Virus record (IMG/VR): IMGVR_UViG_3300029023_000077
DNA: 64,000 bases
From: a virus
Direction: 5' to 3' (one strand)
Below are positions 14,218 to 45,260 of the stretch, one piece after another; within the stretch, counting starts at the first letter, position 1; each line of letters begins with the position of its first letter. The notes beneath the pieces are model-generated. The model ran no database searches and was not told the origin of the DNA. It was given only the letters and a program-made list of their open reading frames with translations. The position numbers and the translations under genes were made by a program.

Positions 14218-16260
14218 ATGATTGAATGTACGAAAGCGATTGATGGGTTAGTAAGTGCAGCTTTTGGGAAGAATATGGTGACTATCTCTGATTTGAAGAA
14301 GATGATGGACAGATTTGCACTTGATCCTAAGGTATCAGAAGTAGCCAGAGAAGCATTCATTGTCAGTGATGTTGACCTGAACAGACGCATGCTCAAGGAG
14401 TTTGAAAAGAAAGCAGCGGCTAAGCATGAAGAGGTTGTCATTATTTTTGTAGCAAAGAAAGGTCCTGCACCATTCAAAGAAATGGCAGGTGTTAATGCTA
14501 TTTTAGAAAAACCGACACCAGAAGATTTGAGTAAAACAACATTCGGTATTATCGAGAGCATTACACAGAAGAATGGCGTTGTACCTATTACTGGTGTAAC
14601 AGATAGCGCAAAAGATTTTGTGAGACAGGAAGAACCAGTTGATCTTGATGTACTTACAGATGAATTTGGTAACCCACTGGAATTTGACCTTAACCGGGTC
14701 GTTGAGGACGAGAAGCCACAGGAAGATACAGCACCGATTGACGTTCCTGTTCCTACTTTGGAGGAGCAGCCAGTTCAGGAAGAGCCGCCAGTCCAGTTTG
14801 ATAAGCCTGAGGATCTTGTTGACCGTATCAAGATGTGCGATAAAGTTAAGGACATTAATATCTTGACACGTGAGCTGACAGCTACAGCTGTCATTAAGGA
14901 GATGATCAAGTCTTCAGCAGACTACACAGGAATTGAAGAACGTTTGAAAGGGCTTAATGAGAAGATTCAAGCAGTATATCTTGATACAACAATTCCTGAG
15001 CAGGATAAGTTGGATAAGGTTCGTGCTCTACTCTATGATAAAGGTTATTACAGAACAAAGACTAACACTATTATTGAGCAGCGTGTAGAAGAGCTTATCA
15101 AGACTATTACTGACCGGACAAGAGAATGCTTGGATAAGCGATGCCAGGAATTAGAGAGGGCAATCGTTAATTATTCATCAGGAGTAAAAGCTCCTTTGGA
15201 TACTGCCAGGGTGTCTAGCCTGATTGATGATCGTGCAAACATTCTTCTGGAAATTACAGCTTTGCGTGAAGAAGTGCAGAATATCTATCTTAAGGTAAAC
15301 AAGTTTGCAGGTGATGCTACTGCTAATATTCTTGAAGACAGTGTGGTTCGCACAGGAAGCCCATTAATTGATGCTCGTTTAAGGTTAGCTGGAGATACTA
15401 CAGTACCTGAGCAGACAACAGAAATCATTGAGAAGATTTTAGAACTGTCAAGTACTAAGTCTGAGGAGTTTAAGGAAGCAAATAGAAAATTAATCATTCT
15501 TACACAGAAGTTGCAGACTGTTATGAATTTAGACAAAGATTTGATTGACGCCCTTACGCAGGCTGTTGAGCTTCTGCAGAGTAACAATATTGAGGATCGT
15601 ATCGTACAGGAGACACTGCTAAAGAAGTCACTTAGGTTCTTTGTGGCAAAAGAAGGCAGTGGAAGGACTGTTATCCCATACATTTGCTCTAAGTTGAAGT
15701 CCAGGACAAACTGTAATGTGCTTTATGTGGATATCGCAGGTGATTCTAAGCTCGCAGATTATACAGAGAGTTACATGAGTCTGGATGATTGGTTAGGTAA
15801 TCAGTATCAGGAGCAGTTCTGTGCAGTAGTTGGTACAATCTCAAATACGCCAGAGGCAGCACAGCGTTTGCTTGTTGCCTTAACAAAGGCAGCTGACTAC
15901 TATCGTGTAATTAATGTTGTAATGAGTCCTGAACAGAAAGAGATTTTTGACATTCTTGTTCCAGATACGGTATGTGTTAATTATATCGTTGACCCTACAT
16001 CACAGTCACTTGATTTCTTTAAGGGCTATATCAAGGAGACTAAATGTGAAAATGTGGCTCAGCGTGTAATTATTAACAAGTGTATCCCTAGTACGACTAG
16101 TATGATTCTTGAGAAGCTGGATCTTATCATGAATGGAGACGTACATGTCGTTACAGTACCGTATGAGCCTCTGATTACGGAATGTAGTCTGCGTGGTGTT
16201 AAGCCATATGAGTTGCAGGTCGTTACAGAAGCATTCAGAGAGGTGTGCAAAGTATGCTAA
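14218..16260 (+). CDS. large hypothetical protein with acidic, proline-rich linker
   Basis: 680-aa ORF; EEQPVQEEPPVQ low-complexity segment; RBS AAGAAAGAGAGG. Confidence 0.55.
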   Translation: MIECTKAIDGLVSAAFGKNMVTISDLKKMMDRFALDPKVSEVAREAFIVSDVDLNRRMLKEFEKKAAAKHEEVVIIFVAKKGPAPFKEMAGVNAILEKPTPEDLSKTTFGIIESITQKNGVVPITGVTDSAKDFVRQEEPVDLDVLTDEFGNPLEFDLNRVVEDEKPQEDTAPIDVPVPTLEEQPVQEEPPVQFDKPEDLVDRIKMCDKVKDINILTRELTATAVIKEMIKSSADYTGIEERLKGLNEKIQAVYLDTTIPEQDKLDKVRALLYDKGYYRTKTNTIIEQRVEELIKTITDRTRECLDKRCQELERAIVNYSSGVKAPLDTARVSSLIDDRANILLEITALREEVQNIYLKVNKFAGDATANILEDSVVRTGSPLIDARLRLAGDTTVPEQTTEIIEKILELSSTKSEEFKEANRKLIILTQKLQTVMNLDKDLIDALTQAVELLQSNNIEDRIVQETLLKKSLRFFVAKEGSGRTVIPYICSKLKSRTNCNVLYVDIAGDSKLADYTESYMSLDDWLGNQYQEQFCAVVGTISNTPEAAQRLLVALTKAADYYRVINVVMSPEQKEIFDILVPDTVCVNYIVDPTSQSLDFFKGYIKETKCENVAQRVIINKCIPSTTSMILEKLDLIMNGDVHVVTVPYEPLITECSLRGVKPYELQVVTEAFREVCKVC

Positions 16261-17648
16261 ATCTTGATGGTTATTTGGATTGTAATAAAGTCCTAGACAT
16301 CAATAGGTATACGAGTCTTAGATTTGCAGATTCACGTGTATTTAAAACGCCAGAGGCATTGTCTTTATATGAGCAGAATTACATGCTTGCATCGGATATT
16401 AAAAAATTGTGTGAGAAAGAATATGGTCTTGAGCTGTTTGAGCCAAGACCATCTTTTATACCAGATGATATCATAAATCATTACAACGGTTCAGGTTATG
16501 TACCTATAAAGTATGAACCTATGAAGAATATCTTGTTGTTGATGTATCTGCCTGAAGTAAAAACATTAGAAAGTCATTACCCTAATGTGCATATTGAGAC
16601 TAAGCCAACAACCATATATTACTATATGAAATATTATCAGAAGTATTATGGTGTTCACAGATCTCTGCGGGATATTCCAGCTAAGATGTTATTTGATTTT
16701 GTTGTAAAAGAAGCTATTGAGAAAGATGCTGCAGATATTACGATTTCAAATACTGGTAAAGCCACAGTTGTATATTACAATATACGCAAGCGGAAGGTAT
16801 GGTCAAACTATTGCTTTAGCCAAGAAATCATGGGTGACATTATAAAGTTTATCACTATAAGCTCACCATTAGACAGAGGGTCTCGTAAAGCTAAGGCTTT
16901 AGATATCGATTTAAATGAAAATTACCGTGGCAGAGTCATGATAAATCAATCATTTAAAGGCATGACTATTACAATTCGTGTTTTACCAAACGCAGCATTC
17001 TCTACTGATATAACAGAGTTAAATTTGACAAAAGAAGCCGAAGAGTGGATGTTGGATAATATTCTTGATATGGAGAAAGGGCTTCGCTTGATTGTAGGTG
17101 AGACAATGTCCGGGAAAAATACAGATGCTTTGTCCCTGTTACAGCGATTAGTAGAGACAGACAGGTATAAGATAGTGTCCGTAGAGATACCAGTGGAGCA
17201 AGAATTGCCTGGTGTTGAACAAATTAATTGTGATACGCCGGACGATTACTCAAACAACATAAAATCTTTAATCAGAGTGAATCCAGACTTTGTTTACATT
17301 ACAGAGATGCAGGATGCTACTGCATTAGACACTATTAAGATAACTAACACAGGTAAATGTGTTTTATCAACAGTACATGCAAACTCTGTCGGGGATACTA
17401 TCGTGAGGCTGATGGATATGACAGGTTTGCCTCAGGATAGAATTGTACAAACTTTGCATTCTGTAGTGTATCAGGAACTCGTAAGAGATGACTCTAAGGA
17501 TTTTGTATATCCAAGATGCCGGTATGTTCGTTTCACGCCTGAGTTGAAGTACCAGCTTTATGGGAAACCACTAGGTGTGATGTTAAAGATTATTCAGGAT
17601 TATGAGGAGGGGGATGTATGGACATCTATTCAGCATTTGGCACAATAG
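16245..17648 (+). CDS. GspE/PilT/VirB11-family traffic ATPase
   Basis: Walker A GETMSGKNT; Asp/His boxes RVNPDFVYITEMQDATA ... TGKCVLSTVHANSVGDTIVRLMDM as in PilT/VirB11. Confidence 0.65.
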   Translation: MQSMLNLDGYLDCNKVLDINRYTSLRFADSRVFKTPEALSLYEQNYMLASDIKKLCEKEYGLELFEPRPSFIPDDIINHYNGSGYVPIKYEPMKNILLLMYLPEVKTLESHYPNVHIETKPTTIYYYMKYYQKYYGVHRSLRDIPAKMLFDFVVKEAIEKDAADITISNTGKATVVYYNIRKRKVWSNYCFSQEIMGDIIKFITISSPLDRGSRKAKALDIDLNENYRGRVMINQSFKGMTITIRVLPNAAFSTDITELNLTKEAEEWMLDNILDMEKGLRLIVGETMSGKNTDALSLLQRLVETDRYKIVSVEIPVEQELPGVEQINCDTPDDYSNNIKSLIRVNPDFVYITEMQDATALDTIKITNTGKCVLSTVHANSVGDTIVRLMDMTGLPQDRIVQTLHSVVYQELVRDDSKDFVYPRCRYVRFTPELKYQLYGKPLGVMLKIIQDYEEGDVWTSIQHLAQ

Positions 17649-20068: not shown

Positions 20069-20689
20069 ATGGATATTATACCTCAAATACTGACTGAAGA
20101 TATGGCTAGTGCAATGACAAACTATCATTTGGAGCTACTAACAAAATGTACGACAGATAGGGTTATGGATTTTGTATTGAGATATTTAGAAAGTCCAGAT
20201 GCAGATCCTACCATTAAGCAACGGCTTAGTACTGCTTATGATTATATCATAAAGCGTAATGAATACCTTAACTCTGAAGAGACAAAGCAGAAGAGTGAGC
20301 TTTTACTGAATACTACCTATAACTCAGTGTCAGTTGCATTGACAGTCAAGCAGCTTCGGGATATTCAGGAAGCGATAGACTATATAACGAAAAGCGAATA
20401 CGCAGTCCCTTATATATCGACTGTGGGAAGTTCTGAGCTCGCTGAGTTACGGCAGGAATTGAAAGAATATACTAAAGATAATGGAAACTATCAGCTGAAA
20501 GTGTTGTTGAACAATTTGCAAAAGTATGGCGATCTATTCAGGGATGGTAGAGATTCTCAGAATAAGGGAACAGTTGTGAAGAAAGTTGTTCGTAACATGA
20601 CAACGTATGAAATCATTTCAAGAGGTATTGATTTCATTATTGGCGTAAAAGAAAGTGGCAAAACTTACCAGTCTTGGAGGTTTTTATAA
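20069..20689 (+). CDS. hypothetical protein
   Basis: 206-aa ORF. Confidence 0.5.
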   Translation: MDIIPQILTEDMASAMTNYHLELLTKCTTDRVMDFVLRYLESPDADPTIKQRLSTAYDYIIKRNEYLNSEETKQKSELLLNTTYNSVSVALTVKQLRDIQEAIDYITKSEYAVPYISTVGSSELAELRQELKEYTKDNGNYQLKVLLNNLQKYGDLFRDGRDSQNKGTVVKKVVRNMTTYEIISRGIDFIIGVKESGKTYQSWRFL

Positions 20690-21666
20690 TGAATTTACAT
20701 TTGTTCGATACATCCGAGTATATCTATAGTGGGTCTAGGAATTTGTGGATTCTGCGTGGTGGTATGCAAACTGATTCAGGTTATGTTGATGCATCACTGC
20801 CATGCGGAAGTTTGGCGTATGTCCTAAACACGTTTGAAGAATGGGGTGGAGAGAATGAAGTTCTTGTTCATTGCATAGACAGCCTACCCACCTACAAAAG
20901 AGCTTTACATGAGAAATACTTTTCTGGAGGGTACAAAGGTAACAGATCTACACCAACGCCTGAGATTACTGTTCAGAAAAAGATGGTACCAGAGATGCTT
21001 GAAATGATTGGTGCTAATACTGTGACAGCTCCTGGCTATGAAGCTGATGATATTATTGCATCTATTGTTAAGTATTATCATGATGATTTTGAAAAGATAT
21101 ATATTCATGCTGCTGATAGTGACTTGTTCTACCTTGTTGATGAAAAGGTTGAAATATTGCCGCTAGCAGGTGGGTTCGATTCTTTGCAAAAAAATTATTC
21201 AAACAACAAAAAAATTTCACCAGGCAGACATATATATTTGGAGAATTGGAAAAGTGTTGTAAGAAAAGGAAAAACTTGTCCTAGAAATGTTTTAACACTT
21301 TTTAAAATTTTAGATGGCGAACGTGGCGACAACGTACCCGCTGTATCTTATGAGATGGGCATGAAGATTGTTGACAGTATTCCGCATTCAGAGTACCCCT
21401 TATGTGGAGATAATGAATATCTCAGGGAGAAGATAAAGATTGCTGTAAACAATGATGAAATGGTAATGGCTGTTACTGATTTAATAATGCCAGTTATTCT
21501 GCCATTTAAAGATGTTGAAATTTTTGAATCTGATTTGGATATGACAAAATTCATGAATATGGCAGCTCTTTGTAAATGCAAATATGCACATTCGTGGAAA
21601 TATACAGCCAATGAAGAATGTGAGGCATTTATTAATAAGTATTTGCAAATTTATCTTAATGATTAG
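20689..21666 (+). CDS. FEN-family 5'-3' exonuclease / flap endonuclease
   Basis: GYEADDIIASIV and HAADSDLFYLV match Pol I 5'-nuclease/T5 exonuclease motifs; ATG 20689 with GGAGG 8 nt upstream. Confidence 0.65.
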   Translation: MNLHLFDTSEYIYSGSRNLWILRGGMQTDSGYVDASLPCGSLAYVLNTFEEWGGENEVLVHCIDSLPTYKRALHEKYFSGGYKGNRSTPTPEITVQKKMVPEMLEMIGANTVTAPGYEADDIIASIVKYYHDDFEKIYIHAADSDLFYLVDEKVEILPLAGGFDSLQKNYSNNKKISPGRHIYLENWKSVVRKGKTCPRNVLTLFKILDGERGDNVPAVSYEMGMKIVDSIPHSEYPLCGDNEYLREKIKIAVNNDEMVMAVTDLIMPVILPFKDVEIFESDLDMTKFMNMAALCKCKYAHSWKYTANEECEAFINKYLQIYLND

Positions 21667-22727: not shown

Positions 22728-24290
22728 ATGATGAAAATCACATTCAGTAAATCTACGCTGTCGAGCATGAAAAGTGCGTATAAACGTATCTTTGGTTTGA
22801 CAGATAAGGATTTAGCAGATCCTGAGCATAAAAAGATTATGGAATCAGCTCTCGAATCTGTTTGGAAATATTCTGGTAATTTTGAGGGGGAGCCTGATAC
22901 TCTAGCAGATAAGCGTAGAGCACTTACTTCTCCAAGTAAAGGAAACGTTGTGGATTTAGCGGCACATTTCAAGAACATGTACCCAGGCAAATATTCCAAG
23001 CTATCTAATTGGGATATTATCTACACAATATTTGCAAGAATGAACTCGTCAGAGCAAGATGAGACAGACGAGCCGGTTATGAATGAGGTAGAAGAAACTA
23101 CAGCCGAGCAGTCTCAGTTAGCGGAGAACGATTCAGATACAAAAAACACTGAGATAACAGTACAAAATGAAAAGGAGATCAAAACCATGAAAAACATCGA
23201 GAACGAAAGAGCAACAGAACAGCCAAGAATCGATATCAACGCATTACGTAGCGCAGGTGCTCCTGCTGGTGCAAATGTTAAGTCTACCGTAAACATGCAG
23301 CAGGCTGCTAGAGACGAAGTGAATGATACACGTGCTAGTCGTCAGGCAAACACTGATGGTAGCACAGTTACAAGAATTATTCTTAGCTCTAGACCACAGA
23401 AAGAGCGTCTGGAGAATGGCGAGGCTACAAAGGGTCATATCGCAAAGGATTCTATTAAGAAGATCAGAGACAGGTTCGTTGAAAATACAGGCTACAATGA
23501 GGCTGATGGCACATTCAGTAAGCTTGTAGCTGGTCAGGAAGAAAATGCACGCGCTATGCTTGATGCTATTGCAGCTGCAGAGGCTGATCCTGACTATGAA
23601 TTCGATATTAATCCTTCCAAGTCTGTAGGTTCTATCAAGGGTCTTGAAATCAAGAAGCCGGATGGTACAGTTGAACTTCAGAAGAAAGAGGAAACAATTA
23701 ACTTCCTCATCAATCAGACTGCTGGTTACATTAAGGCAGTAACAGCTGGTGCGCTTGCAAGAGTTAAAGTAGCTTCTGCATTCCGTACAAGCAAGAAGAA
23801 GAAAGCTTCTGAGAAGCTTGTAAATATCAGCGAAGTACAGAGCGTAGGCGAAATCGCTATTCTGCAGTTAGACAACAAGAAGCTGCTGCTTGAGGATGAG
23901 AGTGCTCATGCTTACTGGCAGAATATCTTACCTGAAATCGAGGAGCAGTCCGGTTGTAAGTCAGATCTTTCTGTTAAGTGCATTAAGAAGGGTAAGGATG
24001 GTAAGGATGCAACTTACACTTACAGATTACCATTAGTAGCAAGAATGCATAAGCAGGATGTTACTGATGCAGATCTTGATGCTAAGTTCGGTAAGCCAAA
24101 CAGAGTTGGTAGAACTTTTGATATCACAAACAAGGAAGATATGGCTAAGCATGAGGCAGATTTCATTTCCATGATCGCTTTGCTTGCTGAGTCTGGTATT
24201 GCTAACAACGATCTGGCTAAAGCTGTAAGATCTACAGCTTCTGCTAACGAAACAGCAGACAATGAGAAGGTTGCTGCAGACTTCCAGTAA
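22728..24290 (+). CDS. hypothetical protein, charged and low-complexity
   Basis: ORF from TTG 22716; ATG 22728 is 5 nt after GGAGG; followed by a long structured non-coding region. Confidence 0.55.
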   Translation: MMKITFSKSTLSSMKSAYKRIFGLTDKDLADPEHKKIMESALESVWKYSGNFEGEPDTLADKRRALTSPSKGNVVDLAAHFKNMYPGKYSKLSNWDIIYTIFARMNSSEQDETDEPVMNEVEETTAEQSQLAENDSDTKNTEITVQNEKEIKTMKNIENERATEQPRIDINALRSAGAPAGANVKSTVNMQQAARDEVNDTRASRQANTDGSTVTRIILSSRPQKERLENGEATKGHIAKDSIKKIRDRFVENTGYNEADGTFSKLVAGQEENARAMLDAIAAAEADPDYEFDINPSKSVGSIKGLEIKKPDGTVELQKKEETINFLINQTAGYIKAVTAGALARVKVASAFRTSKKKKASEKLVNISEVQSVGEIAILQLDNKKLLLEDESAHAYWQNILPEIEEQSGCKSDLSVKCIKKGKDGKDATYTYRLPLVARMHKQDVTDADLDAKFGKPNRVGRTFDITNKEDMAKHEADFISMIALLAESGIANNDLAKAVRSTASANETADNEKVAADFQ

Positions 24291-24372
24291 AATCAGGGTA
24301 GGGGTGCTTAACCGGCGCCCCACCAGTGTATGTTTTTAGAATTGTGTAAAAGGTAGGATTTTCCTATGGGTG

Positions 24373-24406
24373 CAAGGCACCATATCATACTAGATATGGT
24401 GCCTTG
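24373..24406 (+). terminator. 13-bp perfect hairpin inside the structured intergenic region
   Basis: CAAGGCACCATAT-catactag-ATATGGTGCCTTG followed by TTATAAAG. Confidence 0.45.
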
Positions 24407-24635
24407 TTATAAAGTGGCGTGAGCTGCTATATTGTAAGTTCGCTTGCAATAGCTTATTTACAATATTTATTTCGCTGAAGAAGCAGTCTCACAAAGTACA
24501 AATGTACGCACGCCACCCTGGAGACTGCCATATGCAGATTAAGGTCTGCATAGCACAATAATCACTCAGGGCTTAACTCGCTAAGCCCTACAACAGTAGT
24601 TCGCTGCTGTTGGCATAGAAACTGTTATCCAGATA

Positions 24636-25295
24636 TTGATAAAAGCAAGCACGCATGGTCGTGCTTGCTTGTGGTTTAGGTATATGAAAAATGAATATGT
24701 TTTAGTAAGGGACAATGTGATAGGTTATGGTATTGATGCGGAGTCCCGTGAAGAGGACTGGCTGATTAATAAGTTAGGCATGGAAGAAGAACTTCCATGG
24801 AAATATCGTAAAGAATTGATGGACTTCAGCCCATGGTTTCCTAACAAGCAGATGCTGCATATATCAGGTGTTGGCTGTTTAAAATACTCTAAGCAAACTT
24901 TGGTAAATACAGCAAATAATCAATCAGTAGAAGTTGCCAAGTGTGGTAAGAGTATTTACTACTATTTAATGAGAACTATCGGTATGCAGTTGGCTTATAA
25001 AGATATTAGAGTGACTTTAAGACCATATATAGAATCATTTTTTACGAACATATCAGTCGAATTTAATAGGTTAGTTGATTATGACACGATAATGGTTATG
25101 AATGACACTGACCTAGCTTATGGTACAAGGTATGATTTTGAATCATATTCAATATTCATGAGTGGCTCTATGTTAGGATTAAAGCCATTATTAGCAAAAC
25201 AATGGTACATACTTACTAATAGCTCTAATTGGGAATTTGATATCTGTTACTTAGCATACAGAGTAGGTATTGATGTCAAGGAGGTTATTTTATGA
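24636..25295 (+). CDS. hypothetical protein
   Basis: 219-aa ORF; true start may be ATG 24681. Confidence 0.45.
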   Translation: MIKASTHGRACLWFRYMKNEYVLVRDNVIGYGIDAESREEDWLINKLGMEEELPWKYRKELMDFSPWFPNKQMLHISGVGCLKYSKQTLVNTANNQSVEVAKCGKSIYYYLMRTIGMQLAYKDIRVTLRPYIESFFTNISVEFNRLVDYDTIMVMNDTDLAYGTRYDFESYSIFMSGSMLGLKPLLAKQWYILTNSSNWEFDICYLAYRVGIDVKEVIL

Positions 25296-25984: not shown

Positions 25985-27157
25985 ATGGTGGGTAAGATTG
26001 ATTCTTTTGATAAGGTAATTGGGCACAAGTCTTTAATTACGTACATACAGCATTGGATCGACACAGACACGACGCCTAATGTTCTGTTGTTTCATGGTAA
26101 TCCAGGTCTTGGTAAATCGTCTATTGCAAAATTGTTGGCGATTGCTCTTACAACAGATGAAAGTACGCGGAAGGATGCTGTAGAGAATGTAATTTACAAT
26201 AATAGGTCTACTGGAAGTATAAAACTATTCAGCATGTCAAAGATTCAGGACAAAGAAGAGGAGATTAAGAAAGTTTCTGGGGAACTACAGATGAACTTTG
26301 TTAATACAAAGCATAAGGTTCTAATTCTGGATGAAGCACATGAGATGTCAAAGGCAGCACAGGATTCTATTCTTGTTGAATTGGAACATCTACCTGAAGG
26401 ACTGCACGTTTTTATTTGTACAACAGAGATTAATGCATTTCGACCGGCTCTAGTTTCTCGTTGTAAGGTGCTTGAATTACATCCGTTATCTGAAAACGAA
26501 GCAAGACAGTTGTTTAACCGTGAAGTAAAAGAAAGGGATCTTACATTTGAGCTTCAGCAGGGGCTGGCTTCAACGCTTATCTGTGGATGGGCGGAAAACC
26601 AGCCACGTAAGATAATTAATCTGTTGGACAATTTTGAGAATCATGCATTAGTAAAGACAAGGGAGTTGGAAGTATTCATTAACACTGTCAACTCATCTTC
26701 AGTTATAGAGCTTGTTAAGTATCTCTATGGATCAATGCCATTAGGTATTGAATACATTCAATCCATCAAGCTGGATAATACTTTTGTGATGATGCTTATT
26801 GAGGTAACAAAGGTTGCAATGGGTGTGCCATCAAACAGACTTAGCCTACCTGATGTACAGTATATACAGGCTTTTATGCAGGATAAAGATATTAATAAAC
26901 TCTTGCAGTTTGTCATTGAGGTATCTGGGCTTAGTACATTATATAAGCGTCGTGTTATCTCTGCCTTTATGAGAGCACATGTAGATTTCAAGAGAGCAGT
27001 CCCAATAAATGAAGTCCATACAAGTGCAGGTGCGGATATACAGGCAGTAGCAGACAATATTGAAGATAAAAGTGCTATGATACAGCGACAGGAAGGTGTA
27101 CAAGGCGTTACACCTGTTGACATGCTATTTGATCAGCTTAGCACAGTGGAGGTGTAA
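25985..27157 (+). CDS. AAA+ clamp-loader subunit (RFC / Pol III gamma-tau / gp44-like)
   Basis: Walker A GNPGLGKSS, Walker B LILDEAHEM, sensor-1 ICTTE, SRC motif ALVSRCKVLEL. Confidence 0.7.
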   Translation: MVGKIDSFDKVIGHKSLITYIQHWIDTDTTPNVLLFHGNPGLGKSSIAKLLAIALTTDESTRKDAVENVIYNNRSTGSIKLFSMSKIQDKEEEIKKVSGELQMNFVNTKHKVLILDEAHEMSKAAQDSILVELEHLPEGLHVFICTTEINAFRPALVSRCKVLELHPLSENEARQLFNREVKERDLTFELQQGLASTLICGWAENQPRKIINLLDNFENHALVKTRELEVFINTVNSSSVIELVKYLYGSMPLGIEYIQSIKLDNTFVMMLIEVTKVAMGVPSNRLSLPDVQYIQAFMQDKDINKLLQFVIEVSGLSTLYKRRVISAFMRAHVDFKRAVPINEVHTSAGADIQAVADNIEDKSAMIQRQEGVQGVTPVDMLFDQLSTVEV

Positions 27158-29071: not shown

Positions 29072-29084
29072 ATAAACTGTAGGA

Positions 29085-29121
29085 AGACTGGGTATATTAC
29101 ACCCAGTCTTTTATTATGCTT
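29085..29121 (+). terminator. rho-independent terminator
   Basis: AAGACTGGGT-atattac-ACCCAGTCTT 10-bp stem then TTATTATGCTT. Confidence 0.6.
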
Positions 29122-32479: not shown

Positions 32480-32482
32480 CAG

Positions 32483-32593
32483 ATGGAAAAGAAAGAAGTT
32501 CATAAATATTATGCTTGCATTAAAGTTGTACCTGATGCAACATTTAATCTGAGCGATGGTTCTGTTAATACAATCAAAGCTACAATTACGTAA
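32483..32593 (+). CDS. small ORF (36 aa) followed in frame by a second ORF
   Basis: RBS GAGGAG; TAA at 32591-32593 separates it from an in-frame ATG at 32624. Confidence 0.3.
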   Translation: MEKKEVHKYYACIKVVPDATFNLSDGSVNTIKATIT

Positions 32594-32623
32594 AGTAAAA
32601 CAGGTTTTGTGAGAACTGACAGA

Positions 32624-32749
32624 ATGCCTAGCAATATGCAGGTGAAAGTGGGCACAGACATCACAGGAAGTATTACATCAACATCACAGCCTGGAGTCTG
32701 GGATGGCACTTTCAACTTTACAAGCAGTACGGAAAAATTAACAAATTAG
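32624..32749 (+). CDS. small ORF (41 aa), in frame with 32483 ORF
   Basis: MPSNMQVKVGTDITGSITS...; same reading frame as the upstream small ORF. Confidence 0.3.
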   Translation: MPSNMQVKVGTDITGSITSTSQPGVWDGTFNFTSSTEKLTN

Positions 32750-32818
32750 TGCAGAAGGTTAGGTAATTTCAAAATTACCTAACCTTCCCTACGAATTGAT
32801 TAGTTTAAGGAGAATGGG

Positions 32819-41338: not shown

Positions 41339-41353
41339 TAAGGAGTGTTCAGT

Positions 41354-41590
41354 ATGACAAGTATTAAAGTAAATTTGGATTCTGTTAATAAGGTAAAGGA
41401 GTTTGTAGAAATTACAGGGAAATTCCCTGAAGATTTAGATTTGGCTCATGGAAAGTACGTAATTGATGCTAAATCCCTGATGGGTATTTTCAGCCTTGAT
41501 TTGTCAAAGCCACTGGACCTGACAATCAACTCAGATGATGAGGATAGAGTTGAAGAGATTTCAGCTGCATTCAGTTCATTTAGGGTGTAA
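41354..41590 (+). CDS. HPr-like fold protein lacking the phosphorylatable histidine
   Basis: GKYVIDAKSLMGIFSLDLSKPLDLTINSDDEDRVEEI parallels HPr [32 protein letters not shown]; no His at the His15-equivalent position. Confidence 0.4.
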   Translation: MTSIKVNLDSVNKVKEFVEITGKFPEDLDLAHGKYVIDAKSLMGIFSLDLSKPLDLTINSDDEDRVEEISAAFSSFRV

Positions 41591-41679
41591 GACTGTCTTA
41601 TTAAGGAGAAAGAAAACTCTTAAAACTCTATACGGAGTTTAACTCTATATCTTCCTCACAATAAGGCAGAGGATCTCAT

Positions 41680-42073
41680 AGGCCTGTAATGGTTTCGACA
41701 GGGTTATGAGGTTAAGTATTGCATCGGTCAGTCACCTATAACCAAAAAACAAAAAAATAGACGCTACAAGACGCCCTATGGCTATTGCTGCTTAATCTCG
41801 TGAGAGGTTGGTTGTTATAGTTCCGTTGCTACCGGGTAATGGGACGATGGTGATAGCTACCTCAACGTTTGCTACTATAAAGTAAATAGCTATGATGCTA
41901 GACTCCCAATCTTAGTATTGATATACAGCCTCGCAAGGAGGCTAGGTGCACAAACAATGGCCATGTAAGGTTTGTTAATTTTACCTGTATATGACTGTAA
42001 CGAAAATTAACTAAGATGTAGATATACTTATTAGTACTTTCTTTGGACACGGGTTCGATTCCCGTCAGGTCCA
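41680..42073 (+). ncRNA. ssrA: tmRNA (SsrA-like transfer-messenger RNA), tag ATRRPMAIAA
   Basis: 5' AGGCCUGUAAUGGUUUCGACAGGG parallels GGGGCUGAUUCUGGAUUCGACGGG. AAAAAAAUAGAC-GCU... parallels E. coli AAAAAAUAGUC-GCA at the resume codon. The tag frame GCU ACA AGA CGC CCU AUG GCU AUU GCU GCU UAA lies at 41763-41795. 3' end is T-arm ACGGG-UUCGAUU-CCCGU plus acceptor CAGGUCC-A pairing with 5' GGCCUG (G3:U). Length ~394 nt. Confidence 0.8.
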
Positions 42074-42161
42074 CTTAGATACTAGGAGAGGCTAAGACTC
42101 TAGTAGTGATGAGACCATCACACTAGTAGCTTTAAGTAAACAAAGCGAAGGAGATTTATTT

Positions 42162-43716: not shown

Positions 43717-43740
43717 AGTATTTTATGAGGGGGTGTAATT

Positions 43741-43908
43741 ATGTCAAAAGTAAACATGAGTAACTTAATACTATTCTTATGTGCATCATCAAAGATACCT
43801 ACCATTGTATTCGCACATCATACTACAGCGGAGGGTTGCACAAAGCTATGCAAGTTAATTAAGGAGACTTACGATAATGAAGAGAAATATGGTAGCTCCC
43901 ACACATAG
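43741..43908 (+). CDS. small ORF (55 aa) at 5' edge of the ncRNA locus
   Basis: RBS GAGGGGGTG; ends 10 nt before T-arm module A. Confidence 0.3.
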   Translation: MSKVNMSNLILFLCASSKIPTIVFAHHTTAEGCTKLCKLIKETYDNEEKYGSSHT

Positions 43909-43918
43909 TGTAATTATG

Positions 43919-44030
43919 TGGGGTTCGATTCCCTATCGAGGCGTTCAGGTGAAGGGTAGTCCAATCCTGTGGGCGGGTGCGGTTAGAGTGCAGAGGGTGA
44001 GTTTGGGTAACACGCTGTACTGGAACCTGA
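43919..44030 (+). ncRNA. repeat unit A: tRNA-like T-arm/acceptor module plus conserved ~85-nt element
   Basis: TGGGG-TTCGATT-CCCTA T-arm plus TCGAGGC-G, then AGGTGAAGGGTAGTCCAAT...CACGCTGTACTGGAACCTGA. No matching 5' acceptor within 95 nt, so not a canonical tRNA. Confidence 0.35.
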
Positions 44031-44096
44031 TGTATTGAGAGGAGTTCTGTATTTTATGTAACAAAGATAGTTAGTAGAATTGATGGGGGAATTACT

Positions 44097-44216
44097 ATGA
44101 GTAATGATAAAAATAAAAATGTAAATAATGCAAAGAAGCAGGCCTGTGGTAGACATACATTTTTAGCTGATGTATCAAAGAAAGCTACAGAGGCTGCTAA
44201 AAAGAAAAAATATTAA
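44097..44216 (+). CDS. small lysine-rich ORF (39 aa) between the two ncRNA units
   Basis: RBS GGGGGA; MSNDKNKNVNNAKKQACGRH... Confidence 0.3.
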   Translation: MSNDKNKNVNNAKKQACGRHTFLADVSKKATEAAKKKKY

Positions 44217-44234
44217 AATAACAATTGAATAAAT

Positions 44235-44390
44235 AGAATATTAGTTCATTGGCAGAACGACCATATGTGTATGTAGTTGGTTCGATTCCAACATATTCTA
44301 TTAGGTGAAATGGTAGTCCAAATGTCTGTTGGGTGGCTGAGGTTAAAGTGCATGAGGGTGAAATTGGGTAGCACGCTGTACAGGAACCTA
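44235..44390 (+). ncRNA. repeat unit B: 66-nt tRNA-like element plus second copy of the conserved ~90-nt element
   Basis: Acceptor AGAATAT/ATATTCT-A, U8A9, D-arm GTTC-ATTGGCA-GAAC, perfect T-arm GTTGG-TTCGATT-CCAAC, but only 16 nt where anticodon arm and variable loop should be. Then AGGTGAAATGGTAGTCCAAA...CACGCTGTACAGGAACCTA, about 80% identical to unit A. Confidence 0.35.
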
Positions 44391-44475
44391 TTTTAATATA
44401 GCTGGCAGAGCAAAAGAAATAAGAGAGGGTCGGCACTCTCTTAAAGTATTTGGTGGTTAAGCTCTTGCACTTAAT

Positions 44476-44509
44476 CGTGTAGATGATGGGTTCAATTCCC
44501 ACTCCAGCT
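44476..44509 (+). ncRNA. third tRNA-like T-arm/acceptor module
   Basis: ATGGG-TTCAATT-CCCAC then TCCAGCT; possible 5' partner GCTGGCA at 44401 gives a 109-nt span, too long for a standard tRNA. Confidence 0.25.
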
Positions 44510-44588
44510 GTTTCTAATAAAAATATGCAAGGAGATAGAAGAAATTAGACTAGGTTCGTTGTTACATGTTAATTAAAATTAGAAAGGA

Positions 44589-44843
44589 ATGGATAAGATT
44601 ATGGCAAAGAGAATTGAAGATTTAAGAAGTAGTAAGTCATCAGAGCATAAAGGAGGGAGAAAATGTATGATTAAAGTTTTAGGCGATGCAGATGATAATA
44701 TTTTAACTTGTCCATCATGTAAGCGAAATTTGGCTTATAAAGACTCAGATGTAAGAGAGTATCGTGTGGATATACAATCTTGGGAAAGAGGTATTACATG
44801 TCCAGTTTGCAAAAGTATGATACAAGTTCCACAGATATTTTGA
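44589..44843 (+). CDS. small zinc-ribbon protein
   Basis: CPSCKRN ... CPVCKS. Confidence 0.5.
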   Translation: MDKIMAKRIEDLRSSKSSEHKGGRKCMIKVLGDADDNILTCPSCKRNLAYKDSDVREYRVDIQSWERGITCPVCKSMIQVPQIF

Positions 44844-44967
44844 GTAGTTAGATGCACATGGCATTTATGATGAGGATTAAGTTATAAATAATATTTATGT
44901 ACTCTCGAAGTCTTCTAAATGAAGCATTCCGAGAGTACATATATTTTATGAATGGAGGTTTTTTATT

Positions 44968-45189
44968 ATGGCAATAGATATTAAAGAAGCAAGAAAGAAT
45001 TCGTTAGACATGACATTTAGCGAGTTCTTGAGTAACTGTACTGCATGTGGCGGTAATTGGGGTGCCATGTTATTAACTGGTATTAAGAGAGTATTTCCAG
45101 ATAACTATGAGGAAGTAGAGAAGAAATACAATTCTATGGATTTTTCTCATGGTGGTGTTTATCCATTTATGTTTTATGCGAGTGGTTAA
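44968..45189 (+). CDS. hypothetical protein, MAIDIKEARK N-terminal family
   Basis: RBS GGAGGTTTTTTATT-ATG; shared N-terminal motif. Confidence 0.5.
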   Translation: MAIDIKEARKNSLDMTFSEFLSNCTACGGNWGAMLLTGIKRVFPDNYEEVEKKYNSMDFSHGGVYPFMFYASG

Positions 45190-45260
45190 CTGCACATGGT
45201 ATCTATAGTGAAGACAAGAGTTAAGTTTAAAAATAATATTTTATGGATGGAGGTTTTATT

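Follow-up and report, generated by a model that had tools for sequence, protein, structure and literature searches.

Results

Location and boundaries of the gap

The stretch of viral DNA analyzed here (64,000 nucleotides (nt) from IMG/VR record IMGVR_UViG_3300029023_000077; hereafter the window) carries a non-coding gap of 393 nt (positions 24291–24683) within a module of replication genes. The module encodes a UvrD helicase, a T2SSE-type ATPase, a 5'-3' exonuclease (20674–21666), and an orphan protein of 524 amino acids (aa) (22716/22728–24290, + strand), which lies directly upstream of the gap, followed by an orphan protein of 203 aa (24684–25295, +) and a clamp loader (25985–27157). All large open reading frames (ORFs) of the window are on the + strand. 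Comparison with related elements strongly supports the presence in the gap of a conserved, folded + strand RNA. Its variable 5' part carries one to three terminator-like hairpins and leads into a conserved core, about 210 nt long, that forms five helices (Pb to Pf); a further terminator-like hairpin (Pt) and the start codon of the 203-aa gene follow. That gene is conserved in all lineages and is presumed to be the regulated one.

The initial annotation of the window had ended the region at 24635, a boundary set merely by the first TTG (24636) of the downstream open frame, which is the start under a longest-ORF rule. Protein alignment across eight lineages places the true start at ATG 24684 (MKNEYV...), just past Pt, and the gap, Pt included, runs to 24683. 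A gene caller made the same false extension of the downstream gene through Pt in one relative (L059, 4389–4430). Automated annotation will hide about 50 nt of the gap RNA (window 24636–24683) inside the downstream gene. As first reported, there are no ORFs in the gap: its + strand holds none of at least 20 aa.

The gap folds far beyond chance and is unmatched among the 25 non-coding stretches tested in the window. RNAfold gave a minimum free energy of −155.7 kcal/mol for the + strand (z = −8.0) and z = −7.5 for the − strand. In a dinucleotide-shuffle test the gap scored z = −9.8, the 24 other stretches scored from −4.4 to +1.1, and the transfer-messenger RNA (tmRNA) gene of the window scored −2.1. 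The five inverted repeats of the initial annotation were all found in place: I1 (24373–86/24393–24406, 14 nt, perfect), I20 (GCAGTCTC/GAGACTGC, 24483–90/24521–28), I16 (TATGCAGA/TCTGCATA), I21 (AGGGCTTA/TAAGCCCT), and I22 (CAACAGTAG/CTGCTGTTG). Three hairpins, T0 (24301–24324), Pb (24429–24466), and Pt (24643–24670), are additional to that list. The GTAC..GTAC palindrome that it described as enclosed by one repeat is present, but it is lineage-specific, 74% paired, and without covariation. The gap was also said to have a higher GC content than its surroundings; this holds relative to the window (0.41–0.445 versus 0.37) but not relative to the upstream gene (0.40–0.46). Tandem Repeats Finder (TRF) found no tandem repeats in the gap, and there are no iterons, no direct repeats of at least 15 nt, and no direct-repeat family longer than 14 nt.

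Conservation in related elements

A word-indexed protein search with the 524-aa protein as query recovered four related clusters (96, 79, 51, and 36% identity), and an exhaustive hidden Markov model search with the same protein recovered 88. Gene order is identical in every contig fetched, with a long gap after the 524-aa homolog. Looked for in these genomes, the gap lies at the same position in every relative recovered through either flanking protein, down to 30% protein identity, and measures 234–920 nt. Its length is 338–402 nt in L001, L002, L008, L009, and L010, 329 nt in L058, 307 nt in L059, 312 nt in L067, 296 nt in L062, 234 nt in L068, 920 nt in L065, and 683 nt in L069. These relatives come from gut-type metagenomes, on contigs of 130–200 kilobases (kb), with one protein cluster reaching 335 kb. 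A DNA-motif scan of Joint Genome Institute (JGI) metagenomes yielded only two close relatives, L056 and L057.

Eleven distinct sequences from about seven lineages (the window group, L002, L008/9, L010, L058, L059, and L067) can be aligned. The region is hairpin-rich but unalignable in L062, L068, L065, and L069, which represent three or four further lineages. In relatives at close to medium distance, the adjacent coding DNA has diverged more than the core. Core identity to the window is 98% in L002, versus 82% and 94% for the flanking coding DNA, and 77% in L008, versus 64% and 59%.

Hairpins with a CUC(G/A)C loop and with an RCCAC loop recur even in the unalignable versions. The corresponding loop motifs are UGAACUCGCUUAAG and GAUACCACUA in L062, AUCUCAC and GACGCCACA in L068, and CUCGCG and AAGCCACUAA in L069. 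A search with a covariance model (CM) of the core did not detect the L062, L065, and L068 versions and gave only 13.5 bits for L069. CM and related searches found no second copy of the RNA elsewhere in the window or the relatives; there is one per locus. L065 (4016–4935) and L069 (2818–3500) carry hairpin arrays of 920 and 683 nt at the same position, folding at −0.36 kcal/mol per nt, and a unit with a GC hairpin ahead of UUUUUGUAG...CUACAAAA occurs three times in the L065 array. Growth of the element appears to proceed through the gain of hairpin modules.

Covariation and the folding strand

RNAalifold applied to six sequences predicted Pb, Pc, Pd, Pe, Pf, and Pt, with compensatory changes in 22 of 73 pairs. 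When a hand-drawn structure was scored on a MAFFT alignment of eight sequences, 96% of the cells were paired, versus 25–43% with the partners slid by one to three columns. Double changes were found in 22 pairs, versus 2–8 when slid, and none of 500 shuffles reached the observed value. The CM of the core (R1; 210 positions, 44 pairs), to which 11 sequences were realigned, covers the five helices Pb, Pc, Pd, Pe, and Pf. Here 98.1% of the cells were paired and 21 of the 44 pairs (59 cells) had double changes, versus 1–5 when slid and with 0 of 500 shuffles reaching this level; an alignment fitted to the model is biased towards structure, and the MAFFT-based counts agree with it.

Covariation is strongest in Pd, Pe, and Pf. 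The sequences of Pt and of the upstream hairpin H1 vary even among close relatives, and their stems stay perfect. Stems drift, and loops and junctions are fixed in sequence. The supported helices contain 34 G-U cells versus 2 A-C cells. The G-U pairs would turn into mismatches if the − strand folded, so the folding strand is the + (mRNA-sense) one. The initial annotation was right that the region has more structure than a terminator needs, and of the options that it offered, a structured RNA is the one that conservation and covariation strongly support.

Structure of the RNA

The variable 5' part begins with T0 (24301–24324, +), a GC-rich hairpin (GGGGUGC/GGCGCCCC) that comes immediately after the end of the 524-aa gene at its stop codon and has a U-G wobble on the + strand. 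T0 is present in the window, L001, L002, L056, and L057; a different hairpin stands at that place in other lineages. It is followed by a small hairpin, UAGGA-UUU-UCCUA (24354–24366, +), which L010 does not have, and by H1 (24373–24406, +), a perfect 14-base-pair (bp) hairpin that is terminator-like, with a U-rich tail. H1 is hypervariable in sequence with a stem that is always fully compensated, and it has a positional counterpart in every lineage.

The segment GUGGCGUG (24414–24421, +) is the 5' strand of P1 and can pair either with CACGCCAC at 24509–16 (P1a) or with CGCUG at 24473–77 (P1b). Pb (24429–24466, +) is a hairpin of 11 bp plus 3 bp with an invariant apical GCUUGCA; UUGUAAGUnnGCUUGCA is its sequence-fixed element. 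The Pb-Pc junction UAUUUCGC (UAUUUCRC; 24467–24482, +) is kept in every lineage, even in L062 and L068, which cannot otherwise be aligned. Pc (24483–24528, +) is an almost invariant helix of 8 bp, GCAGUCUC/GAGACUGC (GCAGUC...GRCUG), in which distant lineages have exchanged C-G for G-C and U-A for C-G. The conserved motif CAC(G/A)CC (24509–17) lies in the Pc loop.

Pd (24531–24552, +) is an 8-bp hairpin with the loop UUAAGG, and six of its eight pairs show compensatory double changes. All five pairs of Pe covary (24568–24589, +). The CUC(G/A)C motif in the loop of Pe is the most widely conserved module of the RNA and lies in a hairpin loop in nearly every lineage, including L062, L068, and L065; in L069 the predicted fold pairs part of it. 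Pf (24591–24612, +) is a 9-bp hairpin with a UNNG tetraloop (UUCG in the window), and compensatory double changes occur in five of its nine pairs. The block AGAAACUGUUAU (24617–24628, +) does not vary among the eight closest sequences and is almost unchanged in L058, L059, and L067. A weak 5-bp hairpin, Pg (UUAUC/GAUAA; 24625–24642, +), abuts Pt. By eye, the counterpart of Pg in L010, L058, and L059 may extend into the 5' arm of Pt; RNAfold predicts no such overlap. Pt itself (24643–24680, +) is an 11-bp GC-rich hairpin with the U-rich tail UUGUGGUUU.

Alternative pairings

Alternative pairings were sought as conserved complementarity among the aligned sequences. The 5' strand of Pb can instead form an 8-bp hairpin, (A/G)UUGUAAG-UNNG-CUUGCAA(U/C) (alt2; 24431–38:24443–50). 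Each of its 88 cells is paired, and the hairpin is closed by A-U in six sequences and by G-C in the other five. The long stem of Pb uses the same 5' strand, so that the two are mutually exclusive, and it has double changes of its own in three pairs. Both exclusive helices are thus maintained, which would explain the invariance of the Pb 5' strand. The exclusivity suggests a switch or a conserved co-transcriptional intermediate.

P1a, which would form a pseudoknot across Pc, and P1b each show some covariation; L058, L059, and L067 favor neither. In 11 of 11 sequences the ACUGUU of the AGAAACUGUUAU block is able to pair with either of two 5' arms, that of Pf or that of Pc, without double changes. 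Three further candidates were examined and rejected. An antiterminator formed by the Pb loop GCUUGC and the 5' arm of Pt was dismissed on the finding that the Pt sequence changes in L010, L058, L059, and L067 with the loop invariant. A hammerhead core (CUGANGA) was dropped, the CUGAAGA of the window not being kept in L010, L058, and L059. The short AUG or GUG frames over Pd (by eye) differ in length and sequence in each lineage and the stem substitutions are compensatory, which speaks against a leader peptide.

Terminators and promoters

The Pt region (about 60 nt) folds at −17 to −27 kcal/mol by RNAfold, and its sequence varies by compensation. Pt ends 13 nt before ATG 24684 in the window, and in 10 of 11 lineages the corresponding distance to the start codon is 10–25 nt. 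Intrinsic terminators were defined as a GC-rich hairpin with a U-tract of at least five U in eight immediately after it; T0, H1, and Pt have strong stems, but their U-rich tails are interrupted. The first consensus terminator downstream of the RNA is a canonical one at 29082–29112 (+; 12-bp stem and U-rich tail), which may mark the end of the transcription unit headed by the RNA. Neither the interval from Pt to the ATG nor that from H1 to the core (22 nt) is long enough for a promoter, and the sole sigma-70-like match would start transcription inside Pb. Because of this, and because the nearest canonical terminator is at 29082–29112, the downstream genes would have to be transcribed through the RNA. 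A possible phage promoter motif after H1, TTGTAAAAG, was rejected; most of its copies lie inside genes or beside start codons.

Database searches

With Rfam 15 (4227 models, including riboswitches, T-box, ribozymes, 6S, RNase P, tmRNA, GOLLD, ROOL, HEARO, pRNA, and group I/II introns), the only match in the whole window at the gathering threshold was the tmRNA at 41680–42076. In a permissive Rfam scan of 24100–24900 the best match, to the SR1 antisense RNA, reached only 23 bits (threshold 45) and was due to the terminal hairpin. ARAGORN, searching for tRNA and tmRNA, found only the distant tmRNA. INPHARED gave no match to the locus by blastn or to the 524-aa protein by tblastn; tblastn of the clamp loader gave only remote matches (at most 28% identity). 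One protein-pattern scan and three DNA-motif scans of IMG/VR returned chance matches only. Among these, 45 matches to TTGTAAGTNNGCTTGCAA were discarded, as they had none of the other motifs and those inspected resembled coding sequence. Two motif scans of the GTDB representative genomes did not find the RNA.

Within the collections searched, the RNA occurs only in one clade of large uncultivated gut phage-like elements. It is a new RNA family with respect to Rfam 15, and it may already stand as an unnamed candidate in catalogs of phage and microbiome motifs (PMC10690425, PMC8040213). Conserved structured RNAs in phage operons are a known kind of element; the family, the architecture, and the pair of conserved exclusive folds are new as far as these tools tell.

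Discussion

A possible control RNA for replisome genes

Our tentative reading, favored at somewhat less than even chances, is that the gap RNA acts in cis to control the 203-aa gene and the clamp-loader cluster, either as a leader or as an intercistronic element. A layout of this kind is suggested because a conserved core is followed by a variable terminator-like hairpin and then by the start codon of a conserved gene. As in leader RNAs, the conserved domain lies directly upstream of a variable platform and an ORF. The loops GCUUGCA, CAC(G/A)CC, and CUC(G/A)C, together with the AGAAACUGUUAU block, could form the recognition surface for a factor acting in trans. A macromolecular reader, protein or RNA, would be expected rather than a small ligand because the sequence-specific loops stand on variable stems that can be reshuffled. 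The factor would most likely be a phage protein, with a small ligand or another RNA being less likely. Its binding and the alternative pairings (Pb versus UUGUAAG-UNNG-CUUGCAA; P1a versus P1b) could set read-through at Pt or ribosome starts at ATG 24684, and the outcome would be a dosage of the replisome genes tuned relative to a strongly expressed upstream gene. The sequence comparison shows that the element exists and establishes its conservation, secondary structure, folding strand, fixed position, and alternative pairings; we infer transcription, termination or attenuation at Pt, factor binding, and regulatory output, with function read from anatomy and analogy. The initial annotation had offered a protein-binding array as another option, which survives in modified form. 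The invariant loops (CUCGC, RCCAC, GCUUGCA) on drifting stems do resemble recognition sites, but on the RNA, and the partner is putative.

Several observations weigh against a cis-acting control RNA. No covarying antiterminator competing with Pt was found, and the conserved alternative pairings lie 150–200 nt upstream of Pt. A consensus terminator scan of the + strand flagged none of T0, H1, and Pt, whose U-tracts are interrupted; termination at Pt and the transcript ends are predicted from sequence. L068 has no Pt. The CUC(G/A)C and RCCAC loop modules occur in the opposite order in L069, and in both L069 and L065 hundreds of nt separate these conserved modules from the start codon. This spacing and order would fit modular binding sites, not a compact aptamer. 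Synteny is kept on both sides of the gap, so that linkage to the downstream gene is no more informative than linkage to the upstream gene. No candidate binding protein was identified, both flanking proteins being orphans. Finally, all the sequences are from one clade and represent few independent events, with an effective sequence number of 1.81.

Alternative explanations

The RNA might instead be a stable, stand-alone non-coding RNA that acts in trans after release between H1 and Pt by termination, processing, or both; this is the main rival explanation, which we consider possible but rather unlikely. It could then be the RNA part of a ribonucleoprotein (RNP), a decoy or sponge, or a self-assembling scaffold, and the downstream genes would be expressed only by read-through. 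Terminator-like hairpins do bracket the core in most lineages, and at about 210–280 nt with at least five helices the RNA exceeds most protein-binding leaders in size. RNPs and RNA-RNA contacts typically show invariant loops on drifting stems, the apical palindrome UUGCAA of Pb (UGCA in 11 of 11 sequences) could form a kissing dimer, and the reordered loop modules of L069 and the precedent of GOLLD and ROOL, large phage-associated RNAs of unknown function, point the same way. The 22 nt between H1 and the core, however, contain no conserved promoter-like element, the one sigma-70-like start falling within Pb. No targets complementary to the loop motifs were found within the 64-kb window, and its + strand has no further hairpins with CUCGC or RCCAC loops. 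The essential replication genes, moreover, begin 13 nt past Pt without a promoter of their own. A more speculative and distinctly unlikely version is a bistable, pseudoknotted RNA machine of about 270 nt, whose loops would dock a replisome protein or which would self-associate through the palindromic UUGCAA. It would serve as an RNP subunit or scaffold in gut phages of 130–330 kb, and its CUCGC and RCCAC loops would be portable modules, shuffled and multiplied in the versions of 680–920 nt.

It is improbable that the gap is passive hardware, that is, a stack of terminators, 3'-end stabilizers for the upstream mRNA, and hairpins processed by RNase III or RNase E. In T7-type phages processing hairpins separate cistrons, T0, H1, and Pt are terminator- or stabilizer-like, H1 and Pt evolve as pure structure, and the composition of the upstream gene is that of a highly expressed gene. 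This explanation leaves unaccounted for the loops and junctions that stay invariant at 30–36% identity of the flanking proteins, the conservation of the core above that of the adjacent coding DNA, and the two exclusive pairings, and no other intergenic region of the window is built like the gap. Still less probable is a metabolite or ion riboswitch of a new class, with the core as aptamer and Pt as expression platform. Its favorable features are the conserved core and variable terminator directly before an ORF, the invariant junctions and loops, the possible pseudoknot P1a, and the conserved alternative pairings. The genes downstream, however, are replisome components rather than metabolic or transport genes, the RNA is confined to one phage clade and absent from the bacterial genomes of the GTDB representative scans, its modular architecture can be reordered in distant lineages, and it has neither an antiterminator coupled to Pt nor an Rfam riboswitch match. 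The replication or packaging cis-element of the initial annotation fared worst. A DNA-level site (a replication origin, an ssi or single-stranded DNA promoter, or a packaging site) is very improbable. It would suit a gap that lies among replication genes (5'-3' exonuclease, clamp loader) and is rich in hairpins on both strands (z = −7.5 on the − strand), and a + strand folded as single-stranded DNA would be compatible with the sequence data. The 34:2 ratio of G-U to A-C cells, however, places the fold on the + strand only and favors a folded sense RNA over a site in duplex DNA; pair-by-pair compensation is not expected of protein-binding sites in a duplex. The repeat searches, negative for iterons, direct repeats, and tandem repeats, likewise oppose it; there is no AT-rich unwinding block (GC 0.41–0.445), and cumulative GC skew climbs monotonically through the gap, without an inflection.

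Comparison with known systems

In T4-type phages, gp32, gp43, and RegA repress replication genes through operators in leader RNAs: a pseudoknot for gp32, a hairpin about 40 nt upstream of the AUG for gp43, and RegA sites on genes 44, 45, and 62 (PMC3014915). These operators, through which a phage replication protein sets gene dosage, resemble the gap RNA in being structured leader RNAs of phage replisome genes, and the gp43 operator has a sequence-specific loop, as the gap has sequence-specific loops upstream of a gene adjacent to the clamp loader. They differ in being 20–60 nt long with a single hairpin or pseudoknot, whereas the gap has a five-helix core of about 210 nt plus terminator-like hairpins. 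An operator of T4 type, that is, a site within about 40 nt of the ribosome-binding site with a UAAC loop or an AU-rich, AUG-containing RegA site, was not found in the gap; Pe lies about 100 nt from the AUG. UAAC occurs only in the window-type Pe loop, UUAACUCGC, and other lineages have UAUCUCGC, CAAACUCGC, and UUUCUCGC. This UAAC and the likeness of UGUUAU to the RegA site from systematic evolution of ligands by exponential enrichment (SELEX) are leads that are not conserved among lineages or are unverified.

Riboswitch and attenuation leaders share with the gap a folded domain, a hairpin with a U-rich tail that drifts by compensation, an ORF about 10–25 nt farther on, and conserved exclusive helices. 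Unlike them, the gap RNA belongs to no Rfam class, has no antiterminator coupled to Pt, precedes replisome genes, is found in one clade of mobile elements, and has reordered modules. A cryo-electron microscopy preprint includes the report that GOLLD and ROOL form RNA-only assemblies (bioRxiv 10.1101/2024.12.08.627333). Both are large, multi-helix phage RNAs conserved by covariation, with conserved loops and often with flanking terminators, and the palindromic apical loop of the gap RNA is predicted to be capable of mediating self-association. At about 580–800 nt, however, they are much larger than the gap RNA (about 270 nt), which matches no Rfam model and is embedded in an operon, immediately ahead of a start codon.

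Type III toxin-antitoxin loci (ToxI repeats, terminator, ToxN) likewise combine a structured RNA, a terminator, and a gene for a protein of about 200 aa, a layout that sets the ratio of RNA to protein. The gap differs in having no tandem repeats, no ToxN-like domain in the adjacent protein, and a place in a syntenic replication module rather than in a mobile defense island; neither tandem direct repeats of about 34–36 nt before the terminator nor a ToxN-family endoribonuclease was found. The put element of phage HK022 is a two-hairpin element of about 70 nt. The put RNAs are phage RNAs of processive antitermination that act in cis on the transcribing polymerase and lie among operon terminators, and put-like antitermination would explain how polymerase passes T0, H1, and Pt. 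The two have no likeness in sequence or structure, however, and H1 lies upstream of the core.

If the cis-acting reading is correct, a well-supported new family of structured RNAs lies at the heart of the replication module of uncultivated, very large gut phage-like elements, and control of replisome genes at the RNA level, known mainly from T4-type operators, extends to a larger and more elaborate RNA. The gap RNA is also a tractable case of two conserved, mutually exclusive folds, a specific marker for this phage clade in metagenomes, and a handle on the function of the orphan proteins that flank it, one of which has a confidently predicted fold without a match.

Flanking proteins and other features of the window

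The protein with that fold is the 524-aa one: its AlphaFold2 model is confident (mean predicted local distance difference test score (pLDDT) 78.6) and matches no fold in the PDB. It has an acidic disordered linker (residues 108–184) and a conserved C-terminal tail, ...A(A/E)DFQ. The GC content of its gene is 0.40–0.46, versus 0.30–0.36 for the neighboring genes, a composition that suggests high expression. Pfam, PHROG, and PDB gave no match to the 203-aa protein, for which a sliding clamp or a gp62-like protein is a speculative candidate identity; its gene adjoins or overlaps the clamp-loader gene in relatives. One homolog of this downstream protein is deposited under a metagenome-assembled genome labeled Alphaproteobacteria, probably a binning artifact.

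Besides replication genes, the elements encode a mixture of proteins: a T2SSE/VirB11-type ATPase, a HipA-like kinase, PARG, DUF488, a YpsA/DprA-like protein, and DUF932 (window 16245–17648 and 58840–60123; L002 12770–13560; L058 7153–7650). The element looks like a large uncultivated phage; a phage, a phage-plasmid, and another giant mobile element are all possible. Its own tmRNA gene (41680–42076, +; Rfam RF00023, 87.3 bits; ARAGORN tag peptide ATRRPMAIAA) is flanked by several hundred nt of non-coding sequence (41339–42161). Farther on, 43717–45242 is a stretch of 1.5 kb with no + strand ORF of at least 100 aa and no Rfam or tRNA match, and its last third (44717–45242) folds with z = −3.8. 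The gap at 32480–32818 folds with z = −4.4. Both 44717–45242 and 32480–32818 are candidates for additional structured RNAs.

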